From positions 1,770,548-1,834,547 of the forward strand of contig OY282370.1 in the NCBI GenBank assembly GCA_958295745.1: a stretch of 64,000 nt of DNA. The letters run 5' to 3'. The notes under the pieces were generated by a model. It saw only the letters and a program-made list of their open reading frames with translations. It ran no database searches and was not told where the DNA came from. Origin of the DNA: an uncultured Acidimicrobiia bacterium. Lineage in GTDB: Bacteria > Actinomycetota > Acidimicrobiia > Spongiisociales > Spongiisociaceae. Position numbers and translations under genes: made by a program. Numbering within the stretch: position 1 is the first letter of the stretch; each line of letters opens with the position of its first letter. Positions 40,401-52,587 of the stretch are shown here, piece after piece.

Positions 40401-42833
40401 TTATCTGTACGGTAAGGCGGGGAGGCTGGCGGCTTCGGTTATTTCTTCGGGGTGGACCAGGGCGGTCATTTCGGCGCCGGTCGTGGTTACGATTTTCACG
40501 GCCACCGGTTGCCCCGTAGGCGGGAAGGGCTGGGAGCGCATGCTGACGATCTTGTCGATCGCGTCTTTGTCGGCCTTCTTGCCCAGTTCTTTCATGAGGC
40601 GCTTGAGGTTCCGTTCCTTGCGGGCGGCGGGCAGGTAGGTGAGGGTCGAGAAGAACGACGCTCCGTCGTGGTCGGTGTCGATCATCCAGGCGGCGATCTG
40701 GTTCGGTCCTCCGGCAACGACGCCGCCGGTCGCCGGGTCGTAGGTGTCGTAGCCGATCACCTCCACCGACACCCGCCCGTCCGGTTCGGGATGGAGGATG
40801 AGGTCGGGCTCGCCCAGCATGGTGAAGGATTCATCGCCGGGAGCGTCGGCGAGCTGGGTGATCTGCAGGTCCCGGTTGGCCTGGACTTTGAGCACCTCTA
40901 CGTCGCGGTAGGCGGTTTCGATGCCGGGGGTGAACGCCCATCCCACCACGATCAGATGCTTCACGTCGGGCAGGTGTTTCTTGGCTTCGTTGGCGGCGAG
41001 GGCGGCCTGCTGGCCGGTCACCGTGGCGTCGGGGGAGGCCAGCATCACCGCTGCCAAGAACTCGTCCTCTCGGTTGGGGGACTGGCAGAGAGCCCCGTGG
41101 GTGGTGAGCTTCCCGGTGGGCCATGGTTCCAGATCGACGACCTCCAACGCCTGCCGCCCGAACGCCGTTTTCACCGTTGCGCCCATCAGCCGTTCCACCA
41201 GGTTGGCCTGTGTTTGGGCGGCGGCCGTTCCCAGATCGTCGGGCCCGGCTTCGGGTTCGTGGAACGGGACGTAGGCGTAGGGCGATTCGGCCTCTACCGT
41301 AAAGGGTGAGCACACCCGCAACACCGAGCGGTCGTGCTTCGGTTTGTCCACCAGGTAGATGGTGTTCTCCGGGTCGTCCACCTTGTCGTAGGCGAGGGTG
41401 GCGGCGGAGACGCGTTGGATGGTTTTATACACGAACCCCACCGAAGGGTCGGCGGATCCCGGTATGTCGGAGTCGACCTCCCACCAGGGGTGGACTCCGG
41501 TGAGGACGCGCTGGCGGGCTATGGAGATTGAAACGGGGGAGGTATCGCAGGTGATCCACCGTCGTCCCCAACGCTCGGCGGCATCCGCCGTTACTCCCGA
41601 TCCGCAGGTAGGGTCGAACACCAGGTCGCCCGGGTCGGAAGCCATCAGGATGCACCGCTCCACTACCGAGGCGGCAGTTTCGACTACATAACGTTTTGCG
41701 CCGGGCTGTGGACGTTTGACTGTATGCCACACGTTGTCGATGCGATGGCCTGGTACCTCGTCTTCATACCACTTCCAATGGAGGCGTCGGCCTTCAACAT
41801 CGAGTCGTCCTAGTTGGGCGAGTCGGTCCATGCCGCTAAGGCCCTGCTCCCCCGTAGGAGAGGACTCTCCACTGGCGCGTGGCCCCATACCACCCCTTCC
41901 ATTGGGGAGTGTTCGCTCCTCAGGAGTGGACACTCTCCACTGGCGCGTGGCCCCTGAGTGGTATCTGACCCCATCATACTCATACCAACCCGTTCGCCCG
42001 GTATTTGATGCCCCTTGGGAGGTGAGGTTCATTCGTCTATAAATACGTGCCCCTGCAGGTAGATTCTCGTCGGGTTCTTTCCTTTCATATCGAGTTAGTT
42101 TACGGGTAGTACCATCTGGGAGCTCCACCATGACATAAGAGGCGAAGTGTTTGACGACTTCTGCTCGTGAAAGGGGTACATAAAGTTGTCTATACTTGAC
42201 CTTTTGGCTGTCCTTGGTATACCAAAGCAGATAGCTGGCTGATTCGGGTAGGTATCTTGAAGATGAACCTCCTGTGGGCCGCCAGGTTATGGTGGCCATC
42301 TTGTTTTCGTGGCCGAACACCTCGTCGCAAACCACTGCCAGTCGATGAACATGATCGTCTCCGATCTGGAGGAACAGCGACCCGCTTTCTGCTAATAGTT
42401 CGCGTATGAGCACCAGCTTTACATATATGGCGTCCAGATATGAGTGGATGCCGTTGCGGTAGCTGTCTCGGAAGGCGGTGACAGAGGCAGGATCGCCGAC
42501 CGGCACGCCGTCCCCTTTGTTGCTGACGTTGAGGTTGTTGGTAGAAGGTTGGAAGTTACTTCTATATCCTATTCCGTAGGGAGGGTCGAAGTAGACCACC
42601 TGTACTTGACCTGCGAGGTCTTCACGGGCCAGCAACGAGGACATTACGCGAGCCGATTCACCATGTATGAGGCGGTTCTGCCAATGACCCCGGTGCCGGT
42701 AGTACTCGAAGGCGGAATGGTCGGCGGGCAGGCCGTTGAAATCATCGAACAGGTTGGGGGTTACCCCTGCTTCGGGTCGGGTCAGCTGGTTGACGAAGGC
42801 GGTGGGCAGGACCTTCTCACGGATCGACAGCAC
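40401..42833 (-). CDS. mod: Type III restriction-modification system methyltransferase (Mod), beta-class N6-adenine/N4-cytosine MTase
   Basis: 810 aa. Motif IV ..VQVVYFDPPYGIGY.. near the N-terminus; motif I ..VFDPTCGSGVTADAAERWGRRWITCD.. about 300 aa later (beta-class order). GTG start; no in-frame start further upstream before a TGA. Confidence 0.75.
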   Translation of the reverse strand: MLSIREKVLPTAFVNQLTRPEAGVTPNLFDDFNGLPADHSAFEYYRHRGHWQNRLIHGESARVMSSLLAREDLAGQVQVVYFDPPYGIGYRSNFQPSTNNLNVSNKGDGVPVGDPASVTAFRDSYRNGIHSYLDAIYVKLVLIRELLAESGSLFLQIGDDHVHRLAVVCDEVFGHENKMATITWRPTGGSSSRYLPESASYLLWYTKDSQKVKYRQLYVPLSRAEVVKHFASYVMVELPDGTTRKLTRYERKEPDENLPAGARIYRRMNLTSQGASNTGRTGWYEYDGVRYHSGATRQWRVSTPEERTLPNGRGGMGPRASGESSPTGEQGLSGMDRLAQLGRLDVEGRRLHWKWYEDEVPGHRIDNVWHTVKRPQPGAKRYVVETAASVVERCILMASDPGDLVFDPTCGSGVTADAAERWGRRWITCDTSPVSISIARQRVLTGVHPWWEVDSDIPGSADPSVGFVYKTIQRVSAATLAYDKVDDPENTIYLVDKPKHDRSVLRVCSPFTVEAESPYAYVPFHEPEAGPDDLGTAAAQTQANLVERLMGATVKTAFGRQALEVVDLEPWPTGKLTTHGALCQSPNREDEFLAAVMLASPDATVTGQQAALAANEAKKHLPDVKHLIVVGWAFTPGIETAYRDVEVLKVQANRDLQITQLADAPGDESFTMLGEPDLILHPEPDGRVSVEVIGYDTYDPATGGVVAGGPNQIAAWMIDTDHDGASFFSTLTYLPAARKERNLKRLMKELGKKADKDAIDKIVSMRSQPFPPTGQPVAVKIVTTTGAEMTALVHPEEITEAASLPALPYR

Positions 42834-42909
42834 CGGAGCGTCGAAGGTATTCTGGTCGTCGGCAGGGTCGCGGTTCCAGAAGAGAGTTGGATCAGTATTC
42901 GCATTCTCC

Positions 42910-42920
42910 GGGGGGGGGGG
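42910..42920. repeat. G11 homopolymeric tract in the res-mod intergenic region, ~78 bp upstream of the mod start
   Basis: Read directly: ctccGGGGGGGGGGGtggtaac (11 G on the + strand; poly-C in the mod transcript direction). Confidence 0.9.
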
Positions 42921-43060
42921 TGGTAACTGATAGGGGCGGCTTCGTCACCCGAGGCGCTTGCTTCTTCGGTGGGAAGGTTCACGCGGGACGCTTCCTGATG
43001 CCGGTAGGAACGCAGGGGTTTCGTTCGCTGTTTCCTTCTCCGTGCCACGGTGTCCTCCGT

Positions 43061-46012
43061 TCAATCAGTATCGCGGATGGCTTTATCGAGGTCGGTTCTG
43101 ACCCGTTGGGTTTCGTTCAGCTCCACCAATCCCCATCGGCGCAGTTCCGGGTCGATCGCCTCTGTTTTGGCCACCGAGGGAATCCAGTGCTCGATTACGA
43201 AACGTTTCTTGTGTTCCCACTTGGGGTCAGGGCGGCCCTTGCCTTCGATGATCAGGTTGAGTCCGTTGTCGAGCCTGGCTGCGAAGTCGGGAGTGTAGAG
43301 GTGCCAAACTCCGTCCGAGCGGTAGGGGATCGTCCAGCCCAGCTGAAAGTTGCGCGCCCAAGCCGTTACCCGCGGGTGCCGGTCGAGCTGCCGGGCGCAT
43401 TCCAGTTCGAGTCCGCTGTGGCAGGCGGCCAGGTTTAGTTCAGAGTGTGCAGTTTCATGTATGTAACTCAGCGTGGTCTCGAAGCGCACCTCGTCGGTGT
43501 CGCTCAGGGGAGGGAGTGCGAGCTTGGCCACCTGGATAGCGCCGCCTTTTGGAGTGGGGCGGCAGGCGGTCAGTATGCGGTCTACTACCTCCTCACGGTG
43601 GTCGGCTCGCAACAGCAGCATGGGGTCGTCTTCGGCTATGGAGATATGTGGATGGGATATCCATTGCTCAACGGCTCGGTAGGCGCCGCGGAAGAGTCCG
43701 CTCCGTCTATGGCCTGCCGCATCACCGTTGCTGAACACAAACCGGCGCACCACCATTGCCGCCAGGGTTGCCTTGGCGGTCTTCAGACGGGTGTCTTGGC
43801 GGCTGATCTCGATGATTTTCTCCTCGCCTGCCACCCCTGTGATCAACGTCATGGTGGGTATGTCACCTACGTCCACGGAGTAGGGCTCCACCAGGTCGGG
43901 GTGGAAGGTCAGGCCGTCCTGGGGCGGGATGGTCATGTACTGCTCCACCAACGGGAAGGTGATCCGGCGGTCTTGGCGGCCCGGTACGGTCTTCACGATG
44001 TGGATGGGTTTCGGCTCGGGCGGCTCGGGATCGATGGGGCCGGAAGGCATGAACTCGAAAGGTATCCCCACCACGTCGGCGTACTCGGGGTTGAGCAACC
44101 GGCGTATCCGTCCGCCGTCGTCGATCTCCCGCCAGTTCTCGTAGTCGACCCGGCGGAGCGCCCGACCCGTCACCTGTTCGCACAGCAGCTGGGTTCCGAA
44201 GCGGCGGTAGCCGAGTACGTGGGTGACGGTGCGGGTGTCCCAGCCCTCGGTGAGCATCGACACCGACACCACGCAGCGCACCCGCTCGCCCGGCCGGTCC
44301 GGTTTGCCGACCGTGTTCATCATCCGCCGCATCGCCATGACCGGATCGGCGGCTCGGTCGTCGAACCGGCCTACCTGGTCTTTCACCAGCTTGGCGAATT
44401 TGCCGGTGAGTTTCTCGTCGGTGTCGAGCTTGGAATGGACCAGCAGGGTGCGGGGATAATCTTTCCAGCCGCTCCCGTCGTCCCGGACGTTGGAGAAGAG
44501 CGGGAGTTCTCCCGGCCTGAAGGAACCGTCGCGCCCTTCGGCGCCGGCGATCCAGTCGTAGAGGGCGGCGGCGTTGGCGATGGTGTTGGCCACCACGATC
44601 ATCACCGGCGGGGTCTTGGTCTCCGCTTTCTCCCAAGTTCGGAAGGAGCGTTCGTAGTCGGCGTACAGGGCCGACATGGCGCCATCCAACGGTTCCTGCA
44701 GCGGTTCGCCGTTCGCTTTGATGCGCTTGTGATGCGAGTTGCCGTACAGGTTGCGCCATACGGTCTGGTCGGCGGAGGCGTCGTCGTCGCAGGGCACCCG
44801 CGGCACCTTGACCAGCCCCGACTCGATCGATTCCATCAGCCCGAAGTCGGACACCACCCATTCGAAGAGCCGGGGTCGCGCCTTGGAAGTGGTGTCGATC
44901 CACATGGGGGTGGCGGAGAAGTCGTATACGACGCTCGCTTGGCCGCGGCGGTCGTCCATCCGTCCGAGGTGTCCGGCGTCCCGCAGGGCGCGAATGGCGT
45001 TGAACCAGACGGCCGCCGCCTTGGAGTCGACGTCCTTTCCGCCCTTGTGACCCTTCTGGCCTGGAAGCCAGCAGTGATGGGCCTCGTCGTTGATCACCAC
45101 CAGGTCGCCGTAGGCGGAGGAAGGGCGGATCAGATCCCTGAGCACTCGTTCGGCGGCGGCTTGGCGCGACTCGCGGCCGGTGTCGTAGTCGACCTCCAGC
45201 AGCTTGCGGGCGTGTCCTGTGGCGCCGAGCAGGTCGCGGGGCTGGAAGGCCTGCCAGTTGACGACGGCCACCTTCGCCCGGTTGAGACTGCGGCGCAGCG
45301 GCCCCGGCGGGACCAGCCCGTATTCGTCGTAGATGTTGTCGGGGTGGGTGGGGCGCAGCACCGCCAGGCGGTCGCGGACGGTGAGGCCGGGGGCGATCAC
45401 GGCGAAGCGCTGGCCGTGATGCAGGTTCCGGCTTCGGGAAGTGCGGACGGCGTTGAGGGTCTGCCAGGCGATCAGCATCGCCATGACCACCGTCTTGCCG
45501 GTGCCGGTGGCCTGCTTGACGCAATGGCGGACGATCCCGTCGTTGTACCTGCGGGACAGTTCCTCGATGCTTCGGCGTTCCGGCGTCCCTCGGGTGGCGA
45601 CCTCCCGCAACCAGATCAGGGTTTCGATGGCTTCCTGCTGGGCGAAGAACGGCTGCTTCCGGCATTGCTCGCCGTCAGCCCAGTGGCGCAGGAGCTGCCC
45701 GGTGACGCGGGTGGCGCCCGGATAACCGTTGTTTCGCCAAGTCTTCACCTTGCCCCGGATGGCGTTGATGGTCTCGTTCAGGTCCTGGGTGGTCAGCTCG
45801 AGAGCGATCTGCGGATCGGAGTCCTTGGCGTCTTTGGGCGTGGACCGGACCGCCATGGATGGACGGCGGCCCGGCACGGGAAGGCGGCCCTTCATCGCCC
45901 GGCCCAGCCGATCCAGCCCCCAGTACCGGTCCGGTTCTTCGTAGGGGGAGCACAGCACCGGGTCTTGCGACGGGTCGTTGCCGACCCGGGTTGCCCTGCC
46001 GTTTTCGCTCAT
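43061..46012 (-). CDS. res: Type III restriction enzyme Res subunit (SF2 helicase-nuclease)
   Basis: 983 aa. ..VKQATGTGKTVVMAMLIAWQTLN.. (motif I), ..DLVVINDEAHHCW.. (DEAH), ..VLGYRRFGTQLLCEQVTGRALRR.. (motif VI), plus a C-terminal endonuclease region. Confidence 0.8.
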   Translation of the reverse strand: MSENGRATRVGNDPSQDPVLCSPYEEPDRYWGLDRLGRAMKGRLPVPGRRPSMAVRSTPKDAKDSDPQIALELTTQDLNETINAIRGKVKTWRNNGYPGATRVTGQLLRHWADGEQCRKQPFFAQQEAIETLIWLREVATRGTPERRSIEELSRRYNDGIVRHCVKQATGTGKTVVMAMLIAWQTLNAVRTSRSRNLHHGQRFAVIAPGLTVRDRLAVLRPTHPDNIYDEYGLVPPGPLRRSLNRAKVAVVNWQAFQPRDLLGATGHARKLLEVDYDTGRESRQAAAERVLRDLIRPSSAYGDLVVINDEAHHCWLPGQKGHKGGKDVDSKAAAVWFNAIRALRDAGHLGRMDDRRGQASVVYDFSATPMWIDTTSKARPRLFEWVVSDFGLMESIESGLVKVPRVPCDDDASADQTVWRNLYGNSHHKRIKANGEPLQEPLDGAMSALYADYERSFRTWEKAETKTPPVMIVVANTIANAAALYDWIAGAEGRDGSFRPGELPLFSNVRDDGSGWKDYPRTLLVHSKLDTDEKLTGKFAKLVKDQVGRFDDRAADPVMAMRRMMNTVGKPDRPGERVRCVVSVSMLTEGWDTRTVTHVLGYRRFGTQLLCEQVTGRALRRVDYENWREIDDGGRIRRLLNPEYADVVGIPFEFMPSGPIDPEPPEPKPIHIVKTVPGRQDRRITFPLVEQYMTIPPQDGLTFHPDLVEPYSVDVGDIPTMTLITGVAGEEKIIEISRQDTRLKTAKATLAAMVVRRFVFSNGDAAGHRRSGLFRGAYRAVEQWISHPHISIAEDDPMLLLRADHREEVVDRILTACRPTPKGGAIQVAKLALPPLSDTDEVRFETTLSYIHETAHSELNLAACHSGLELECARQLDRHPRVTAWARNFQLGWTIPYRSDGVWHLYTPDFAARLDNGLNLIIEGKGRPDPKWEHKKRFVIEHWIPSVAKTEAIDPELRRWGLVELNETQRVRTDLDKAIRDTD

Positions 46013-47095: not shown

Positions 47096-47593
47096 TCAGT
47101 CTTCGGTCCCTCCGGGCCTCCGCCAAGCCATAGCGTGGGCGGCGCCTAGGACGAGGGCTATCGCCAGGATACGCACCCGCCATGCGCCGTACAGATCGAT
47201 CCCGAGCGGCTCGTCGAGGGACCACCCGCCTGCTCCCATGAGCGCCACCGCCGCCGCAGCCGCCGCCAGGGTGATGACGTACTCGTAGCCCTCTCCCTTG
47301 TTGAAGATGAAGAAACCGTTGGACCGGTGATGGGTCAGGTACGCCACCAGCATCAGGGCCGCCGCCCCCGCCGCGGCTATGGATGTCAGCAGGCCCAAGA
47401 TCAGCCCAGCCCCGACGGCGATCTCGACCCACGAAGACAGCAACGCCTGGTAACGAGGGGCCCGCCACCCCAGACGTCCGAACCAGCGGGCGGTTCCATC
47501 GAAGTTGCGAAGGTGGTTGACCCCGTGGAGGGTCATCACCACCCCGATCCACACTCGCAGGATCAACAGCCCGAGATCGGCGACATCCATGTC
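47096..47593 (-). CDS. DoxX family membrane protein
   Basis: ..MDVADLGLLILRVWIGVVMTLHGVNHL...WVEIAVGAGLILGLLTSIAAAGAAALMLVAYLTHH... Probable start at internal Met (rc ~47593). Confidence 0.65.
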   Translation of the reverse strand, partial: DMDVADLGLLILRVWIGVVMTLHGVNHLRNFDGTARWFGRLGWRAPRYQALLSSWVEIAVGAGLILGLLTSIAAAGAAALMLVAYLTHHRSNGFFIFNKGEGYEYVITLAAAAAAVALMGAGGWSLDEPLGIDLYGAWRVRILAIALVLGAAHAMAWRRPGGTED

Positions 47594-47653
47594 GTCCGAT
47601 GTTAGATGTTCTTCGCCTCGGTGCGGGTAGGGATATCTTGCTATTGTCGTGAC

Positions 47654-47926
47654 ATGGCGAACCTGCAGGTCAGGAACATACCTGACACCCTTCACGAGCG
47701 CTTGCGCCGCTACGCAAGCATCAACAGTTGCACTATCAGCGCAGCAGTACTCACTGCCGTGGAGCGAGAGCTAGCGATGTGGGAGTGGCGCGAACATATG
47801 GCCGTCCGCCCCGAGACCGACCTCGGTGTGGAGGCGGCCGCCCTGATCGCCGAAGAACGCTCACAACGTAGCCGCGAGAGCGGGAGTTTCTGTCAGCACA
47901 CGCAGGCCGCGTCGGCGACCGGTTGA
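47654..47926 (+). CDS. type II antitoxin, FitA/VapB-like ribbon-helix-helix (Arc/MetJ) family; orphan
   Basis: MANLQVRNIPDTLHERLRRYASINSCTISAAVLTAVERELAMWEWREHMA.. is the canonical xLxVRNLPDELHxRLRxRAA RHH antitoxin N-terminus. No PIN-domain toxin follows; a convergent Schlafen-like gene is next. Confidence 0.55.
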   Translation: MANLQVRNIPDTLHERLRRYASINSCTISAAVLTAVERELAMWEWREHMAVRPETDLGVEAAALIAEERSQRSRESGSFCQHTQAASATG

Positions 47927-47957
47927 TTGCGGGCTGTTCCTCGAGAGGTCCTTGCTG

Positions 47958-49580
47958 CTACCCCTCTAGCTGTTTCAGGTATTCGGTGCCCTTGGCTGTT
48001 GAGCGGTAGCGTTGGAGGCGGCTTCGGGGTTTGTCTGGGATGGTCATTTCGATCAGGCCTGATCGTAGGGCGGGTACTAGATAGGCTTCGCGGAAGTGCT
48101 TGATGTCTTTCAAGCCGAGCAGCCTTCTTAGTTGTTGACTGGTCATTTCCCCTGAAATCACATTGAGTAGCTTGACTTCCCCGGTGACTTCCCCGGGTGA
48201 ACTCAGGGGGTTCCTGGTTTCTTCAGATGACTTCCCCGGTCGGTTGACTTTGGGGGTTGACTTGGGGGGTTGACTTTGGGGGTTGACTTGGGGGGTTGAC
48301 TTGGGGGGTTGACTTGGGGGGTTGACTTCCCCGGTGACTTCCCCGGTGGTCTTGGTCGCCGTATGTGAGCGCACTTCGGGGTTGGGTCGAAAGACGACGG
48401 TAAAGAAGCTGTTGGCCTCGAACTCCGGCAACGGGCAGTCCTGTTCCCGGGCGTCGTTCTGGATACGCCGGATTCCGGTGCCCGCCTTCTCGATGAAGTC
48501 GATGCGGTGGAGCAGATCGGCGAGTAGCGGATTGCGCCTGATGCTCTTGTGGCCGAGCTCGGCCATGGTGATACCTTTGGGCAGGCTACCGGGGCTGACC
48601 ACTTCGATCCGGTCGGGGTAGAGCTCGACGAAGACGTTGGCGCCTTCTATGAACCAGTCCCGGTGCATGACCGCGTTGGTGATGGCCTCCCGCAACGCCT
48701 TCATCGGGTACTCGGGGATGTTCTGCCTCCTCAGGCCCTCGATCCGGTAGGCGAGGCGGGTGTTGCGCTCGATGAACCGCATCGACTCCTCGATGTCGGC
48801 CGCGATCCCGCCGTTGAAGTCCTTGCGATCCAGGATGTGAACCTTGTTGGGGTCGCGCGCCAGCAGGCAGGTGATGTACGCCTGCGAGAAGAACCGCCGC
48901 ACCTCCTTGGCGAAAAACAACACGCCCGCGTTGCGGAACAGCAATCGGTCGCCGTCCTGCTCGGCGGCTTCGATGTTCGTCAGTACATCCTCGACGGGCG
49001 GCCGGCCGGTGATGCCGGACATCTCCAGCCAGGTTCTGTACTTGTCGAAGTCGAAGTCATCGGGGTACTTGAAGCGCGGACAGGGGGTGAGGTCGAACCG
49101 GATCACTCCCTCGCTTCGGAAGAAGTTGCGTATTTCGTCTCTGCTGAGCTTTTGGGTCATGGCGCCCTGACGCCAGAAGAAACCATCGCTGCACTGCACC
49201 GGCTTGCCGTCGCTTTCCCGAACATGGACGACGATCACCTCATTCACCGGTTCCACCACGATTTTTACCGGAGGATCACAGTTGTGTGCGATGTTCTGGA
49301 TCCGAGCGCGCAGGGCGTTGGAGTCCTGAACCCCGGCCACCGCGCCGTTGTCGCTTACCCCCAAGAGGATCCTGCCGCCGATAGTGTTGGCCAAGGCCGC
49401 CATCTCTCTCGCCAACGAGGACGAGAGTCTCTCCTTGAACTCGAGGGTTGCGCCCTCACCCTGCTGGATGAGCATTGCGAGGTCGGCAGGAGTCATGTCG
49501 CTTCTCCCAACCTCGGGCGGCGTGAGTTCGTCAGGAGGCGGCGGGTTCGTACCATCCGGAGCCGAAGATGAGGCCGTCAT
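47958..49580 (-). CDS. AlbA_2 (Schlafen-like) / HATPase_c_4 ATP-binding putative DNA-binding protein with C-terminal wHTH
   Basis: 540 aa. ..ATLEFKERLSSSLAREMAALANTIGGRILLGVSDNGAVAGV.. (AlbA_2), ..GSLPKGITMAELGHKSIRRNPLLADLLHRIDFIEKAGTGIRRI.. (HATPase_c_4), linker with (GEVTGEV)-flanked PPSQPPKSTPQVNPQSQPPKSTPKVN repeats, C-terminal ..QQLRRLLGLKDIKHFREAYLVPALRSGLIEMT.. (wHTH). Confidence 0.6.
   Translation of the reverse strand: MTASSSAPDGTNPPPPDELTPPEVGRSDMTPADLAMLIQQGEGATLEFKERLSSSLAREMAALANTIGGRILLGVSDNGAVAGVQDSNALRARIQNIAHNCDPPVKIVVEPVNEVIVVHVRESDGKPVQCSDGFFWRQGAMTQKLSRDEIRNFFRSEGVIRFDLTPCPRFKYPDDFDFDKYRTWLEMSGITGRPPVEDVLTNIEAAEQDGDRLLFRNAGVLFFAKEVRRFFSQAYITCLLARDPNKVHILDRKDFNGGIAADIEESMRFIERNTRLAYRIEGLRRQNIPEYPMKALREAITNAVMHRDWFIEGANVFVELYPDRIEVVSPGSLPKGITMAELGHKSIRRNPLLADLLHRIDFIEKAGTGIRRIQNDAREQDCPLPEFEANSFFTVVFRPNPEVRSHTATKTTGEVTGEVNPPSQPPKSTPQVNPQSQPPKSTPKVNRPGKSSEETRNPLSSPGEVTGEVKLLNVISGEMTSQQLRRLLGLKDIKHFREAYLVPALRSGLIEMTIPDKPRSRLQRYRSTAKGTEYLKQLEG
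48243..48328. repeat. imperfect 14-bp tandem repeat (gttgacttgggggg x ~6) inside the Schlafen-like CDS; unit length not a multiple of three
   Basis: Read directly: gttgactttgggg|gttgacttgggggg|gttgactttggggg|gttgacttgggggg x3. Flanked on both sides by ggtgacttccccgg(tgacttcccc). Encodes the 14-aa-period QVNP(P/Q)SQPPKSTP segment. Confidence 0.85.
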
Positions 49581-52443
49581 GGCGGATGACCCAGGAGTGT
49601 TTTTGTTCTAGTTGGTCGGTGGCTGGGTTGCGCCGGACGTAGTCCACCCATCTGCCTGACTCGGTGGCGTCGGATAGTTCTTGGCCGTAGTTTTTGCCGT
49701 TGACGTCGATGCGGGTGGTTGTCTTGGTTCCTACTCGTTCTGGGTTGGGGGCTAGGGCGATGGTGGTTCCGTCTTCGATGATGAAGATGTACCAGGGGCC
49801 GTCGATGCTGTCGGTGGAGTTGTAGTGGTCGATGGTTGCTTGGCGGCCGTCTTGGTTGTAGCGGTTGATGGCTTGTTGTACGAAGTATTGGGTGTAGGCG
49901 GGTGGGTCGGCTTTGGTGGGCGGTGCCGGGGCTTCGTCTTCGTACCATCCGGAGCCGAAGATGAGGCCGTCTCGTTTTATCACCCAGGAGTGTTTCTGTT
50001 CTAGTTGGTCGGTGGCTGGGTTGCGCCGGACGTAGTCCACCCATCTGCCTGACTCGGTGGCGTCGGATAGTTCTTGGCCGTAGTTTTTGCCGTTGACGTC
50101 GATGCGGGTGGTTGTCTTGGTTCCTACTCGTTCTGGGTTGGGGGCTAGGGCGATGGTGGTTCCGTCTTCGATGATGAAGATGTACCAGGGGCCGTCGATG
50201 CTGTCGGTGGAGTTGTAGTGGTCGATGGTTGCTTGGCGGCCGTCTTGGTTGTAGCGGTTGATGGCTTGTTGTACGAAGTATTGGGTGTAGGCGGGTGGGT
50301 CGGCTTTGGTGGGCGGTGCCGGGGCTTCGTCTTCGTACCATCCGGAGCCGAAGATCAGGTTGTCGTGGCGGATGACCCAGGAGTGTTTCTGCTGGTTTTG
50401 GTCGGCGGCCGGGTTGAGGAACACGTAGTCGACCCATCTCCCGACTTCGGTGGCGTCGGCTATCTGCTGTCCGCTGGTTTGGCCGTAGACGTCGGTTGTG
50501 TGGGTGATGTTGGTGTTGCGCAGATCGGGTCGGGTGGCGTGGGCGATGATGTTTTCGTCTTCGATGATGAAGATGTACCAGGGGCCGTCGATGCTGTCGG
50601 TGGAGTTGTAGTGGTCGATGGTTGCTTGGCGTCCGTTTTGGTTGTAGCGGTTGATGGCTTGTTGTACGAAGTATTGGGTGTAGGCGGGTGGGTCGGCTTT
50701 GGTGGGGGGTGTTGGGGTTTCGTCTTCGTACCATCCGGAGCCGAAAATCAGGTTGTCGTGGCGGATGACCCAGGAGTGTTTCTGGCGGTTCTGGCCGATG
50801 GCGGGGTCGAGGAACACGTAGTCCACCCACCTGCCGGCTTTGGTGACGTCGGCTATCTGCTGCCCGTAGGGCTTGCCGTAGATGTCGGTGCGGTAGGCGC
50901 TGCCGGTGCCGATCCGTTCAGGCAGGGTGGCGTGGACGATGACTTCGTCGTCTTCGACGATGAACATGTACCAGGGGCCGTCGATGCTGTCGGTGGAGTT
51001 GTAGTGGTCGATGGTTGCTTGGCGTCCGTTTTGGTTGTAGTGGTCGATGGCTTGTTGTACGAAGTATTGGGTGTAGGCGGGTGGGTCGGCTTTGGTGGGG
51101 GGTGTTGGGGTTTCGTCTTCGTACCATCCGGAGCCGAAGACGAGGCCGTCGTGGCGGATGACCCAGGAGTGTTTCTGGCGGTTCTGGCCGATGGCGGGGT
51201 CGAGGAACACGTAGTCCACCCATTCACCTGCCTCGGTGGCGGCGGCTAGCTGCTGTCCGCTGGGTTCGCCGTAGACGCCGGGTGTGTGGGTGATGTTGGT
51301 GTTGCGCAGATCGGGTCGGGTGGTGTGGGCGATGATGTTTTCGTCTTCGACGATGAACATGTGCCACTGGCCGTCGATGCTGTCGGTGGAGTTGTAGTGG
51401 TCGATGGTTGCTTGGCGTCCGTTTTGGTTGTAGTGGTCGATGGCTTGTTGTACGAAGTATTGGGTGTAGGCGGGTGGGTCGGCTTTGGTGGGGGGTGTTG
51501 GGGTTTCGTCTTCGTACCATCCGGAGCCGAAGACGAGGCCGTCGTGGCGGATGACCCAGGAGTGTTTCTGGCGGTTCTGGCCGATGGCGGGGTCGAGGAA
51601 CACGTAGTCCACCCATTCACCTGCCTCGGTGGCGGCGGCTAGCTGCTGTCCGCTGGGTTCGCCGTAGACGCCGGGTGTGTGGGTGATGTTGGTGTTGCGC
51701 AGATCGGGTCGGGTGGTGTGGGCGATGATGTTTTCGTCTTCGACGATGAACATGTGCCACTGGCCGTCGATGCTGTCGGTGGAGTTGTAGTGGTCGATGG
51801 TTGCTTGGCGGCTGTTTTGGTTGTAGTGGTCGATGGCTTGTTGTACGAAGTATTGGGTGTAGGCCGGTTCGTCCGACTTGGCGGGGGCGCGGCCCGCGGC
51901 GAGCAGAGCTTGGTTGCCCGCCCGCAAGTATGCCGATAGGTCGGCGCGGGTGGCCCCTTCCGGGAAGGCGCGGCCTATGACGGCGGCGGTATGGGCGGCG
52001 GTGACGGTCCGGTCGGGCCGGAAGGTTCCATCGGGGTAACCCAAGAACCATCCGCGGGCAGCGGCGTATCCGATGTCGGCCCCCCGTGCGTGGTCGGCGG
52101 GAACATCGGAGAACGTGGGTAGTTCTATGGTTGTGGCGGCGGGGGAGGCGAGGGCCTGGTTGCCCGCCCCTGCGTAGGTGGCCAGGTCGGCGCGGGTGGC
52201 CCCTTCCGGGAAGGCGCCGCGGACGGCGGCGATGGTCTGGGCGGTGGTGACGGTCTGTCCGGGCCGGAAGGTTCCATCGGGGTAACCCAAGAACCATCCG
52301 CGGGCAACCGCGTATTCGATGTCGGCCCGCTGCGGATGGTCGGCGGGAACATCGGAGGACCCGGAGTCCCCGTTCGCATAGCCGGCGCCCGCGGAGACAA
52401 CGAGGAAGAGCGCGAGCGCGGCTGCGGGGAGTTTACGTTTCAT
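49531..52443 (-). CDS. cell-surface protein: signal peptide, two SLH domains, six near-identical ~127-aa tandem repeat domains
   Basis: ORF 49531..52524 (-). Likely start MKRKLPAAALALFLVVSAGAGYA (AGAGG RBS). SLH-like ..FSDVPADHARGADIGYAAARGWFLGYPDGTFRPDRTVTAAHTAAVIGRAF.. twice. Then six repeats ..PPTKADPPAYTQYFVQQAI(D/N)(H/R)YNQ(N/D)GRQATIDHYNSTDSIDG(Q/P)W(H/Y)(M/I)FI(V/I)ED..SWVIRHDGL(V/I)FGSGWYEDE(T/A)P.. Confidence 0.6.
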   Translation of the reverse strand: MKRKLPAAALALFLVVSAGAGYANGDSGSSDVPADHPQRADIEYAVARGWFLGYPDGTFRPGQTVTTAQTIAAVRGAFPEGATRADLATYAGAGNQALASPAATTIELPTFSDVPADHARGADIGYAAARGWFLGYPDGTFRPDRTVTAAHTAAVIGRAFPEGATRADLSAYLRAGNQALLAAGRAPAKSDEPAYTQYFVQQAIDHYNQNSRQATIDHYNSTDSIDGQWHMFIVEDENIIAHTTRPDLRNTNITHTPGVYGEPSGQQLAAATEAGEWVDYVFLDPAIGQNRQKHSWVIRHDGLVFGSGWYEDETPTPPTKADPPAYTQYFVQQAIDHYNQNGRQATIDHYNSTDSIDGQWHMFIVEDENIIAHTTRPDLRNTNITHTPGVYGEPSGQQLAAATEAGEWVDYVFLDPAIGQNRQKHSWVIRHDGLVFGSGWYEDETPTPPTKADPPAYTQYFVQQAIDHYNQNGRQATIDHYNSTDSIDGPWYMFIVEDDEVIVHATLPERIGTGSAYRTDIYGKPYGQQIADVTKAGRWVDYVFLDPAIGQNRQKHSWVIRHDNLIFGSGWYEDETPTPPTKADPPAYTQYFVQQAINRYNQNGRQATIDHYNSTDSIDGPWYIFIIEDENIIAHATRPDLRNTNITHTTDVYGQTSGQQIADATEVGRWVDYVFLNPAADQNQQKHSWVIRHDNLIFGSGWYEDEAPAPPTKADPPAYTQYFVQQAINRYNQDGRQATIDHYNSTDSIDGPWYIFIIEDGTTIALAPNPERVGTKTTTRIDVNGKNYGQELSDATESGRWVDYVRRNPATDQLEQKHSWVIKRDGLIFGSGWYEDEAPAPPTKADPPAYTQYFVQQAINRYNQDGRQATIDHYNSTDSIDGPWYIFIIEDGTTIALAPNPERVGTKTTTRIDVNGKNYGQELSDATESGRWVDYVRRNPATDQLEQKHSWVIRHDGLIFGSGWYEPAAS
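49540..51900. repeat. ~380-bp coding tandem repeats (6 copies, adjacent copies ~90-99% identical) within the surface-protein gene
   Basis: Long identical DNA stretches recur, e.g. ccatccggagccgaagatgaggccgtc...gttgtagtggtcgatggttgcttggcg... Clear in the six-frame track as repeated ORF fragments on several frames. Confidence 0.8.
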
Positions 52444-52587
52444 CGGCAACACCTCTTGAATCAAATCCTGACTGGCCTTATTGAGCATACCAAAGACGGT
52501 TTGCATGCCAAAGACGGCTTGCAACGAGGGGGGCGGGTATGAAACCGCAGGAATATCTCTGATCGGATGCGCTCGGGACGGCGTGAT

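Follow-up and report, generated by a model that had tools for sequence, protein, structure and literature searches.

The poly-psi VNTR of NeuO in E. coli K1 is built from the heptanucleotide AAGACTC (PMC3046976). It is a tandem unit within the coding sequence whose length is not a multiple of three, such that full-length protein is made only at copy numbers divisible by three, and three units encode an unfolded peptide repeat with as many residues as the unit has bases, a heptad in this case (PMC3046976). The NeuO array lies at the 5′ end of the gene, acts as a true on/off switch, has copy numbers of 2 to 93 in different isolates and has been shown experimentally to be phase-variable (PMC3046976). 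A second precedent is the C-terminal phase variation described in Neisseria gonorrhoeae and Helicobacter canadensis, in which a 3′-proximal repeat could alter or remove the C-terminal part of a protein with the gene not being silenced (PMC5320596). The cases tabulated are mostly homopolymeric tracts, most of them with documented length differences between strains (PMC5320596), and in contingency genes the repeat number and phase commonly vary among sequenced strains (PMC5320596 tables).

In the window analysed here (the whole stretch of DNA, 64 kb in length) a gene for an AlbA_2/HATPase_c_4 protein carries an array with the same arithmetic as NeuO, its unit being of the 3n±1 type and three units encoding a peptide repeat of as many residues as the unit has bases, a 13-mer predicted likewise to be unfolded. 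The wide natural copy-number range of NeuO is missing. In contrast to NeuO the array separates two domains and is found in the last third of the gene, towards the 3′ end, has a 13-bp unit and is constant at six copies in five haplotypes. The position near the 3′ end resembles that of the Neisseria and Helicobacter cases, with the difference that no strain length difference was detected in the 13-bp array across the five haplotypes.

The maximal ORF in the ORF list spans 47958-49580 on the minus strand and encodes 540 aa. In keeping with the sequence-only reading of this locus, which proposed a Schlafen/AlbA_2-HATPase_c_4 protein with a C-terminal winged helix, Pfam identified SLFN_AlbA_2 (PF04326) at residues 42-145 of the 540-aa ORF (49146-49457; E 1.8e-18, 67.6 bits), HATPase_c_4 (PF13749) at residues 313-397 (48390-48644; E 7.8e-24, 83.9 bits) and the Fic-like_C winged helix (PF21247) at residues 470-528 (47997-48173; E 9.8e-22, 77.1 bits), all on the minus strand. 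All three exceed their Pfam gathering scores (25.3, 26 and 27 bits, respectively), which places the protein among the COG2865-like AlbA_2/HATPase_c_4/winged-helix proteins. In a PDB search with the protein, 3LMM aligned to residues 53-373 (E 9e-15) and the Fic protein 4RGL matched the winged helix (E 3.7e-9), while a protein collection search returned 1193 homologues. The true start is probably Met29 (ATG at 49494-49496), giving a coding sequence of 47958-49496 (minus strand) and a 512-aa product. A GGGAG lies 8 nt upstream of this ATG, homologue alignments all begin at residue 29 and gene callers picked the same start in three of the four full-length proteins of the species' cluster (P0001, P0121, P0123), with P0121 identical to the 512-aa product; the longer ORF, extending to 49580, runs 50 nt into the upstream gene.

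HATPase_c_4 and the winged helix are joined by a linker of residues 400-470 (48171-48383, minus strand; boundaries from BLAST against homologues), running from NPEVRSHTATKT to GEVTGEVK, in which repeat units are read in several frames. The 13-bp array occupies 48242-48328 on the minus strand, with six full units at 48242-48319 and a partial seventh reaching 48328, and was scored by Tandem Repeats Finder as period 13, 6.7 copies, 95% matches and 0% indels. The pattern GGTTGACTT[G/T]GGG has six tandem matches in the array and none outside it in the 64-kb window at 0-1 mismatch. The six tandem copies noticed in the sequence-only reading are therefore present but its 14-bp units are not, all units being 13 bp; the apparent alternation of 13 and 14 bp arises because a T/G substitution (TTT+G5 versus TT+G6) alters the motif with no change in length. 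On the coding strand the unit is AAGTCAACCCCC[C/A], and the array is 100% pure in contigs L001, L003 and L004 and 95% pure in the window, where there are two C>A substitutions. The encoded peptides are NPPSQPPKSTPQV and NPQSQPPKSTPKV, with three units (39 bp) giving 13 residues, such that translation of the six units yields NPPSQPPKSTPQV twice. The unit is A+ACCCCCCAAGTC, that is the TPQV 12-mer plus one base, and TPQV is still read in every third unit.

Around the array the motif TGACTTCCCCGG occurs five times (48173, 48185, 48228, 48323 and 48335), and the 12-mer was found nowhere else in the 64-kb window. A duplicated motif had been said to bracket the array, and this proves to be an exact 25-nt direct repeat, TTGACTTCCCCGGTGACTTCCCCGG, at 48172-48196 and 48322-48346, the arms of which are 150 bp apart and so in frame. 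The arm that is 5′ in gene orientation (48322-48346, minus strand) holds two canonical 12-bp units, CCGGGGAAGTCA, encoding (T)GEVTGEV, and the 3′ arm (48172-48196, minus strand) holds two more, encoding GEVTGEV directly before helix 1 of the winged helix. A lone copy at 48228-48239 (minus strand) lies outside the canonical frame, being read as P-G-K-S, with spacings of 17 and 43 nt around it that bring the frame back, which shows that the linker can accommodate a rotated frame. A dispersed repeat or mobile element was ruled out, as both the 13-mer and the 12-mer are confined to the linker within the window. In an AlphaFold model that was poor overall (mean pLDDT 55, pTM 0.27) and was used solely for the contrast between linker and winged helix, the linker is predicted to be unstructured, with residues 402-464 at pLDDT 27-36 and without secondary structure, and the winged helix is confidently modelled at pLDDT 80-92.

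In silico, 3, 6 or 9 units preserve the reading frame, whereas 4, 5, 7 or 8 units, or a one-base change in a C6 run, lead to a stop after 443-467 residues and loss of the winged helix, as had been foreseen for the gain or loss of a single unit. On this basis the locus had been called a classic contingency-locus architecture. In a genuine contingency locus, slippage in the 13-bp units or their C6 runs would reversibly toggle the population between the full-length and the winged-helix-less protein, with the heterogeneity itself under selection. This would be phase variation of the C-terminus, perhaps linked to restriction-modification genes in the vicinity. Such a switch would be in keeping with the 443-467-aa products of a single unit or base change, the pure repeats of three haplotypes, the presence of the family in defence islands beside DNA methylases and type III restriction genes, and the precedents of the NeuO 7-bp VNTR (PMC3046976) and Neisseria C-terminal phase variation (PMC5320596). 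The strain comparison, which the sequence-only reading had itself proposed with an invariant copy number as the outcome that would speak against it, points the other way, in that six units were present in all five haplotypes, few as these are (the window and contigs L001-L004; four of the five from one metagenome and L002 error-ridden), at a nucleotide divergence of 0.8-2.0%. Over the same haplotypes the 5′ 12-bp block does vary, with two copies in the window, L001 and L002 and one in L003 and L004, and a 393-bp repeat nearby also differs between strains. No truncated 99%-identical protein was present in a collection of 5.8 billion proteins. Further points against it are the length of the unit, the placing of the array in the last third of the gene (towards the 3′ end) and the two substitutions that break up the copy in the window. 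The non-triplet arrays of the family are in frame in 15 of 15 cases, unlike those of real contingency genes, and the divergence between units in the 11-bp rounds of relatives (see below) points to old, stable structures. As such, a contingency locus is mechanically possible but unsupported, and is considered unlikely. The 78 bp of six perfectly identical units in three haplotypes make a good slippage substrate and suggest recent homogenisation, and, the haplotypes being few and mostly from one metagenome with L002 error-ridden, rare out-of-frame subpopulations may be present. A search of JGI metagenomes returned 0 matches to the exact 13-mer array and 11 to a looser pattern of 13-bp period, all of them in unrelated arrays where the gene has no homologue, which is consistent with the chance level for any 9-mer among 13-bp tandem repeats.

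The compensating homopolymer indels that L002 carries in and around the array could be taken to mean that the low-complexity region is a product of sequencing or assembly error. This is hardly credible, since three clean, independent contigs have an architecture identical to that of the window, and L002 is broken in several genes, EF-P among them. An artefact of assembly was excluded by the recurrence of the array in four independent contigs of the species. A different possibility is that ribosomes are led to change frame at the C CCC CCA heptamers of the array, one allele then giving rise to both protein forms, and AAC CCC CCA does fit X XXY YYZ in the zero frame. Recoding is nonetheless very improbable given that there is no downstream stimulatory structure (z = +0.7), that the alternative frames both stop within 10-25 codons with nothing recognisable encoded and that the heptamer motif is missing from most relatives.

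Comparison with around 200 homologues (120 proteins and 80 genomic loci) places the array in a family-wide context. A length-variable linker of 17 to 147 residues, made of T-x-E/Q-V tetrapeptide runs, is found at the same position throughout, encoded by a 12-bp unit, ACC-NNN-SAA-GTY; a literature search found no published description of such a linker family. Of the 83 linker arrays scored by Tandem Repeats Finder, 65 had a dominant period of 12 (or 24/36), frequently at 100% perfection and reaching 22 copies, and the length difference between close relatives is a multiple of 12 nt. The window shows the same organisation, with tandem 12-bp units of the SAAGTYACC core directly upstream of the winged helix in numbers that vary among relatives. 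Like these in-frame coding VNTR linkers, in which the 12-bp T-x-E/Q-V units precede Fic-like_C, the linker in the window begins and ends with canonical GEVT units, one block of which is strain-variable, and it differs from them in its central unit of 13 bp, one base from the TPQV unit, with the reading rotating through three frames. Orthologues with a conserved linker but no repetition at the DNA level had also been named as counting against phase variation; the orthologues do repeat, in the form of the in-frame 12-bp unit. Rotation of the frame is not confined to the window, since at ten homologue loci 11-bp units form rounds of three in which the AAGT core falls in frames 1, 0, 2, 1 and which encode 11-residue peptides such as QVGTKSGPSRD, and the units of these rounds have diverged from one another. 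The winged helix is in frame behind 83 of 83 linkers, including all 15 with 11- or 13-bp arrays. Two stand-alone winged-helix ORFs (P0128 and P0125) were examined as possible remnants of frameshifted alleles and rejected, both being in other gene contexts and not behind a truncated homologue.

The reading preferred here, at a probability of about two in three, is that the 13-bp array derives, as a lineage-specific 3n+1 form, from this family-wide linker repeat and serves as a frameshift-tolerant spacer held in frame by selection. The 12-bp VNTR of the family spacer would gain and lose units in frame via slippage or unequal recombination, and one TPQV unit (ACCCCCCAAGTC) may have gained an extra A in the lineage leading to the window's species, after which the 13-bp unit would have been amplified. 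The survivors would be those arrays whose total length leaves the winged helix in frame, hence six units (78 bp), and the reading would pass through all three frames to give a Pro/Ser/Thr/Gln/Lys-rich 13-residue peptide, twice. The peptide is likely to be a disordered tether, the exact sequence of which would be of little importance, with selection acting on continuity with the DNA-binding domain, such that out-of-frame copy numbers would be removed by purifying selection. Repeats of this kind are reportedly the subject of a theoretical proposal on primordial genes by Ohno in 1984, which is said to have concerned 'oligomer repeats with N not divisible by 3' that are stop-free in every sense frame and encode the same periodic peptide in three frames. 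The likeness is that the array itself is insensitive to frameshifts, and the difference is that in the window the downstream domain still imposes a frame. The original phase-variation claim gives way to a view of the array as best seen as an evolutionary curiosity of the spacer.

A spacer in which the sequence does not matter leaves the strong conservation of the AAGT core at the nucleotide level unaccounted for. The Glu or Gln codon before Val in the linkers is GAA in 97% and CAA in 96% of cases, figures that fall to 30% and 48%, respectively, for these dipeptides in the remainder of the genes, and all 21 conserved E/Q columns of the N-terminal domain are polymorphic on the same tree. The AAGT core is retained in all three frames within 11- and 13-bp arrays, and the repeat and winged-helix module is also found downstream of Fic, LRR and other, unrelated N-terminal domains, which counts for the spacer reading as well, and is duplicated up to 7-8 times. 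These observations could mean that the repeats are chiefly a nucleic-acid element within the coding sequence, with SAAGTYACC motifs every 11-13 bp (near one helical turn) putatively recognised as DNA or RNA and the peptide a by-product. The spacer repeat of Fic-like_C would then be a candidate array of sites to which the neighbouring winged helix binds, or would serve recombination that moves the winged helix between Fic, AlbA_2/HATPase_c_4, LRR and other defence-island proteins, and slippage in 3n±1 versions such as that of the window could in addition disconnect the DNA-binding domain. Such an element is rated as distinctly unlikely. Copies of the motif are not enriched in the 300 bp upstream of the family's genes, two unconvincing matches in 24 kb leading to the rejection of upstream operator copies, and the array has no promoter-like site, no sigma-70-like site being found for an antisense promoter from the TTGACT boxes. 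Likewise, no stable DNA or RNA fold was detected in the array (z-score +0.7 for both), and G-quadruplex-capable runs, present on the coding strand of just 19 and on the template strand of 18 out of 80 linkers, were dismissed as a common denominator. The loci are also not independent, because many are related by recent horizontal transfer. Avoidance of a Shine-Dalgarno-like GAGGT was rejected as the cause of the GAA bias, since the same genes have GAG in 70% of their E-V dipeptides once the linker is left aside, and it would not account for CAA.

The association of the AlbA_2/Schlafen-like family with defence islands was borne out, the neighbours of homologues being enriched in DNA methylases, ResIII, GmrSD and AbiEii, and the gene in the window has housekeeping genes on one side and an S-layer-homology protein on the other. 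PADLOC matches were partial and at the level of domains (the pAgo model PDLC02394, E 1e-25, and Aga_SIR2-PNTD1-PNTD2), with no match to a complete known anti-phage defence system model with its partner genes and no Argonaute or SIR2 gene adjoining the gene in the window. The domain content is that of the AlbA_2-HATPase_c_4 defence-island proteins and the PADLOC pAgo-associated Schlafen-type modules; no conserved operon partner was found, and neighbours are not conserved among homologue loci. As for the orphan ribbon-helix-helix (RHH) antitoxin proposed next door, a convergent 90-aa ORF is indeed present at 47654-47926 on the plus strand, but its assignment as an antitoxin was not upheld, the match to FitA-like_RHH being weak (24.1 bits against a Pfam cut-off of 27) and no toxin gene being adjacent, the 31 bp between this ORF and the convergent gene leaving no space for one. 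The ORF is species-specific, tblastn finding it in L001, L003 and L004 alone among 84 loci, and as a partner of the AlbA_2 family it was rejected, being below threshold and absent beside homologues in other taxa.

For scans of genomes, the locus is a caution that a non-triplet repeat within a coding sequence is insufficient as evidence for a contingency locus. At the level of the family, a horizontally mobile set of defence-island proteins, like the Fic-like_C module in general, carries a rapidly length-variable spacer, the 12-bp unit of which is conserved at the nucleotide level across phyla and has repeatedly given rise to 11- and 13-bp derivatives read in all three frames. As such it provides a natural system for the tolerance of a tether to frame rotation, for a possible repeat-driven shuffling of a DNA-binding module and for a frozen synonymous site (GAA/CAA, 96-97%).

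The target gene is a minus-strand ORF of 540 aa (47958-49580 in the ORF list) in which Pfam places an SLFN_AlbA_2 domain at residues 42-145, a HATPase_c_4 domain at residues 313-397 and a Fic-like_C winged helix at residues 470-528. The PDB relative of the N-terminal two-thirds of the protein is 3LMM and that of the winged helix is the Fic protein 4RGL. The true start is probably Met29 (ATG at 49494-49496), since the homologues all begin there, most gene calls of the species use it, it is preceded by GGGAG at a distance of 8 nt, and the longer ORF runs into the upstream gene. The 71-residue linker between HATPase_c_4 and Fic-like_C is predicted to be unstructured, with pLDDT values of 27-36 at residues 402-464 and of 80-92 in the adjoining winged helix, in a model that is poor overall.

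Tandem Repeats Finder (TRF) located a 13-bp array in this linker at 48242-48328 (period 13, 6.7 copies, 95 % matches, no indels). The sequence-only reading had reported 13- and 14-bp units, of which the 13-bp unit stands while the 14-bp unit was a T/G substitution misread. The plus-strand unit GGTTGACTT[G/T]GGG is present six times in the array, with no further copies in the 64-kb window. On the coding strand the 13-mer AAGTCAACCCCCC passes through all three frames, such that 39 bp encode NPPSQPPKSTPQV and the six units make this 13-residue peptide twice. A 12-mer, TGACTTCCCCGG, read on the coding strand as GEVT, occurs five times in the window, with two double copies forming an exact 25-nt direct repeat (48172-48196 and 48322-48346, 150 bp apart). 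The linker is a patchwork of reading frames, because the 12-mer copy at 48228-48239 is out of the canonical frame and read as PGKS, the frame being regained 43 nt later.

A search of 5.8 billion proteins returned 1193 homologues, the best 120 of which are 461-601 aa long and differ in length in the linker, which spans 17-147 residues and is made up of runs of the tetrapeptide T/A-x-E/Q-V, with TGEV, TPQV, TPEV and TDQV among its variants. A genome scan returned 254 loci, of which 80 were kept (58-70 % protein identity to the window), from MAGs labelled Pseudomonadales, Alphaproteobacteria, Binatia, Latescibacterota, Acidobacteriota, Gemmatimonadota, Caldilineaceae, Spirochaetia and Planctomycetota, among others. 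A sponge association is possible for many of them, their taxon labels being typical of sponge microbiomes. Several pairs of homologue genes from differently labelled phyla, such as loci L011 and L025, L014 and L026, and L017 and L045, share 85-94 % nucleotide identity, with pairings that include Latescibacterota/Gemmatimonadota and Alpha-/Gammaproteobacteria; identity this high implies recent inter-phylum horizontal transfer, or mis-binning.

In the 83 linker arrays scored at the DNA level, the dominant period was 12 (48 arrays), 24 or 36 (17 arrays) or 11 (10 arrays), with period 13 found in the window's species only. Units are 100 % perfect in many of the 12-bp arrays, which reach about 22 copies, and linker length gaps between close relatives are multiples of 12 nt; the family's linker is therefore an in-frame VNTR. 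The window's 13-mer equals the TPQV 12-mer ACCCCCCAAGTC plus one A, and the 13-bp array probably originated by a one-base insertion into this 12-bp VNTR followed by amplification. The 11-bp arrays mirror the 13-mer, running in rounds of three with an AAGT core in frames 1,0,2,1, and yield 11-residue peptides (e.g., QVGTKSGPSRD, QVPPKYPPSTP) that recur in many homologues. Divergence between the units within the 11-bp rounds suggests that these are old, stable structures.

The sequence-only reading had proposed a contingency locus in which gain or loss of a unit shifts the frame. The arithmetic is sound, with 3, 6 or 9 units keeping the frame, and 4, 5, 7 or 8 units, or a one-base change in a C6 run, giving products of 443-467 aa without the winged helix. 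The comparative data do not support switching. The 90 % identity cluster of the target protein has five members, one identical to the window's product and the other four encoded on four contigs from a single long-read metagenome assembly. These five haplotypes differ by 0.8-2.0 % over 3.5 kb and all have six 13-bp units, perfect in three haplotypes and with two C>A changes in the window, while between these haplotypes the GEVT block on the 5′ side goes from two copies to one. The sister-strain contig L002 (ENA ERZ19489113 s5132.ptg005703l) has homopolymer indels in compensating +1/-1 pairs, both within the array and ahead of it, a truncated C-terminus, broken EF-P, NusB and DoxX genes and a ~600-nt deletion that takes out the RHH gene together with a portion of DoxX. 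The contig is probably error-ridden; it represents a contig end of low quality or else a copy in decay. No truncated allele of the species was present in the 5.8-billion-protein search, in which such an allele would outscore all other matches, and the winged helix is in frame in 83/83 linkers, including 15 with 11- or 13-bp arrays. The array is thus a potential slippage substrate, but the sequences show a constant unit number and point to selection that keeps the winged helix in frame.

JGI metagenomes held no more copies of the 13-mer array, and 11 matches to a looser pattern were rejected as unrelated intergenic repeats. Contigs L087-L097 (JGI, diverse organisms) carry tandem AAGTCAACC+N4 with a 13-bp period in 3-4 copies, with many more in L095, probably chance matches among many 13-bp tandem repeats.

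Among systems studied by experiment, the closest analogue is NeuO of E. coli K1, in which a 7-bp VNTR encodes an unfolded heptad repeat and full-length protein is made at multiples of three copies only (PMC3046976). The two share this arithmetic, but the window's array lacks the copy-number variability that defines NeuO, as well as its 5′ position and short unit. In Neisseria, 'C-terminal phase variation' occurs through 3′ repeats (PMC5320596). In the literature searched, no description of the tetrapeptide linker or its 11-/13-bp variants was found.

Over the divergence that separates the haplotypes, length variation between strains was found in the upstream gene (49531-52524, minus). Its 997-aa product carries S-layer-homology motifs together with some six Cache-like repeats of 131 residues each, corresponding to an array of 393-bp period at 49546-50459 (TRF, 93 % matches). 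As judged from lengths of 997, 991, 860 and 729 aa in strains of the same species, this product is a real copy-number-variable surface protein. GC content is 58-63 % over the AlbA_2 and repeat-rich surface-protein genes (47500-51500) vs 66-72 % in the flanks, consistent with foreign origin, and GC skew is strong across the repeats.

The defence-island association suggested for proteins of this type was upheld by the neighbours of the homologues. Downstream (n=75) these include 12 N6_N4 DNA methylases and 5 ResIII helicases along with Eco57I, HsdR, GmrSD, PLD and SNF2 proteins, and upstream GmrSD, AbiEii and KAP NTPases, with the N-terminal part of the target protein matched by PADLOC models for pAgo-associated proteins. 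These neighbours revealed neither a conserved partner nor a system. At ~2 kb from the target gene, past EF-P and NusB, the window's species has a large ResIII ORF and a putative methylase; the large ORFs of the window at this place (983 aa and 810 aa, 40401-46012, minus) have sister-strain counterparts with ResIII and N6_N4_Mtase domains, so a type III-like restriction-modification system lies close by. The convergent gene taken for an RHH antitoxin (47654-47926, plus) falls under the Pfam threshold, has no toxin and is confined to the window's species. The maximal DoxX ORF (47096-47695, minus, 199 aa) overlaps it; DoxX is called as 164 aa in the sister strains, with no such overlap.

The repeat unit is kept at the nucleotide level beyond the needs of the peptide. 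ACC codons make up 84 % in linkers and 55 % in the rest of the same genes, GTC plus GTT 82 % and 47 %, and GGG 67 % and 19 %. Before Val, Glu is GAA in 222/230 linker cases and 58/191 elsewhere in the same genes, and Gln is CAA in 179/186 and 21/44 (96-97 % vs 30-48 %; linkers of homologue loci L005-L084 and window 48171-48383). This within-gene comparison ruled out that Shine-Dalgarno-like GAGGT is avoided in general. In the N-terminal domain of the same sequence set, the conserved E/Q columns are polymorphic without exception (21/21, 7-63 % A-ending codons), therefore shared ancestry alone is insufficient for the linker pattern. Between arrays the unit's second codon is free to vary. The AAGT core is maintained in all three frames of the 11- and 13-bp arrays. 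No promoter, stable fold or universal G-quadruplex potential was found in the array and linkers, and no motif copies upstream of genes. The pattern might reflect a role in cis as DNA or RNA, a bias as to which units are able to expand, or recombinational module exchange.

The repeat is a feature of the winged-helix module and not of the AlbA_2 protein. The alignment to 4RGL begins at 'QVTDQV', and the 4595 proteins with this winged helix (exhaustive HMMER search) include the Fic protein P0310, which has a TPEV-type leader, an LRR protein and other HATPase_c_4 proteins. Linker-plus-winged-helix modules occur in tandem, in 2 to 8 copies, in proteins P0202 (801 aa), P0203, P0237, P0209 and P0212 and at homologue loci L014, L042, L049, L059, L060, L071 and L074, with repeat arrays on both sides of each copy suggesting module duplication by unequal recombination between arrays. 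A stand-alone (TPEV)2 plus winged-helix ORF, P0128 (contig L085, 3001-3294), shares 4 nt with the end of a 268-aa ORF located after an N6_N4 DNA methylase, and could represent an accessory protein of restriction-modification that has been split or fused. In the target protein the array most likely forms part of a flexible tether of loosely constrained amino-acid sequence, persisting only at copy numbers that leave the DNA-binding domain attached.
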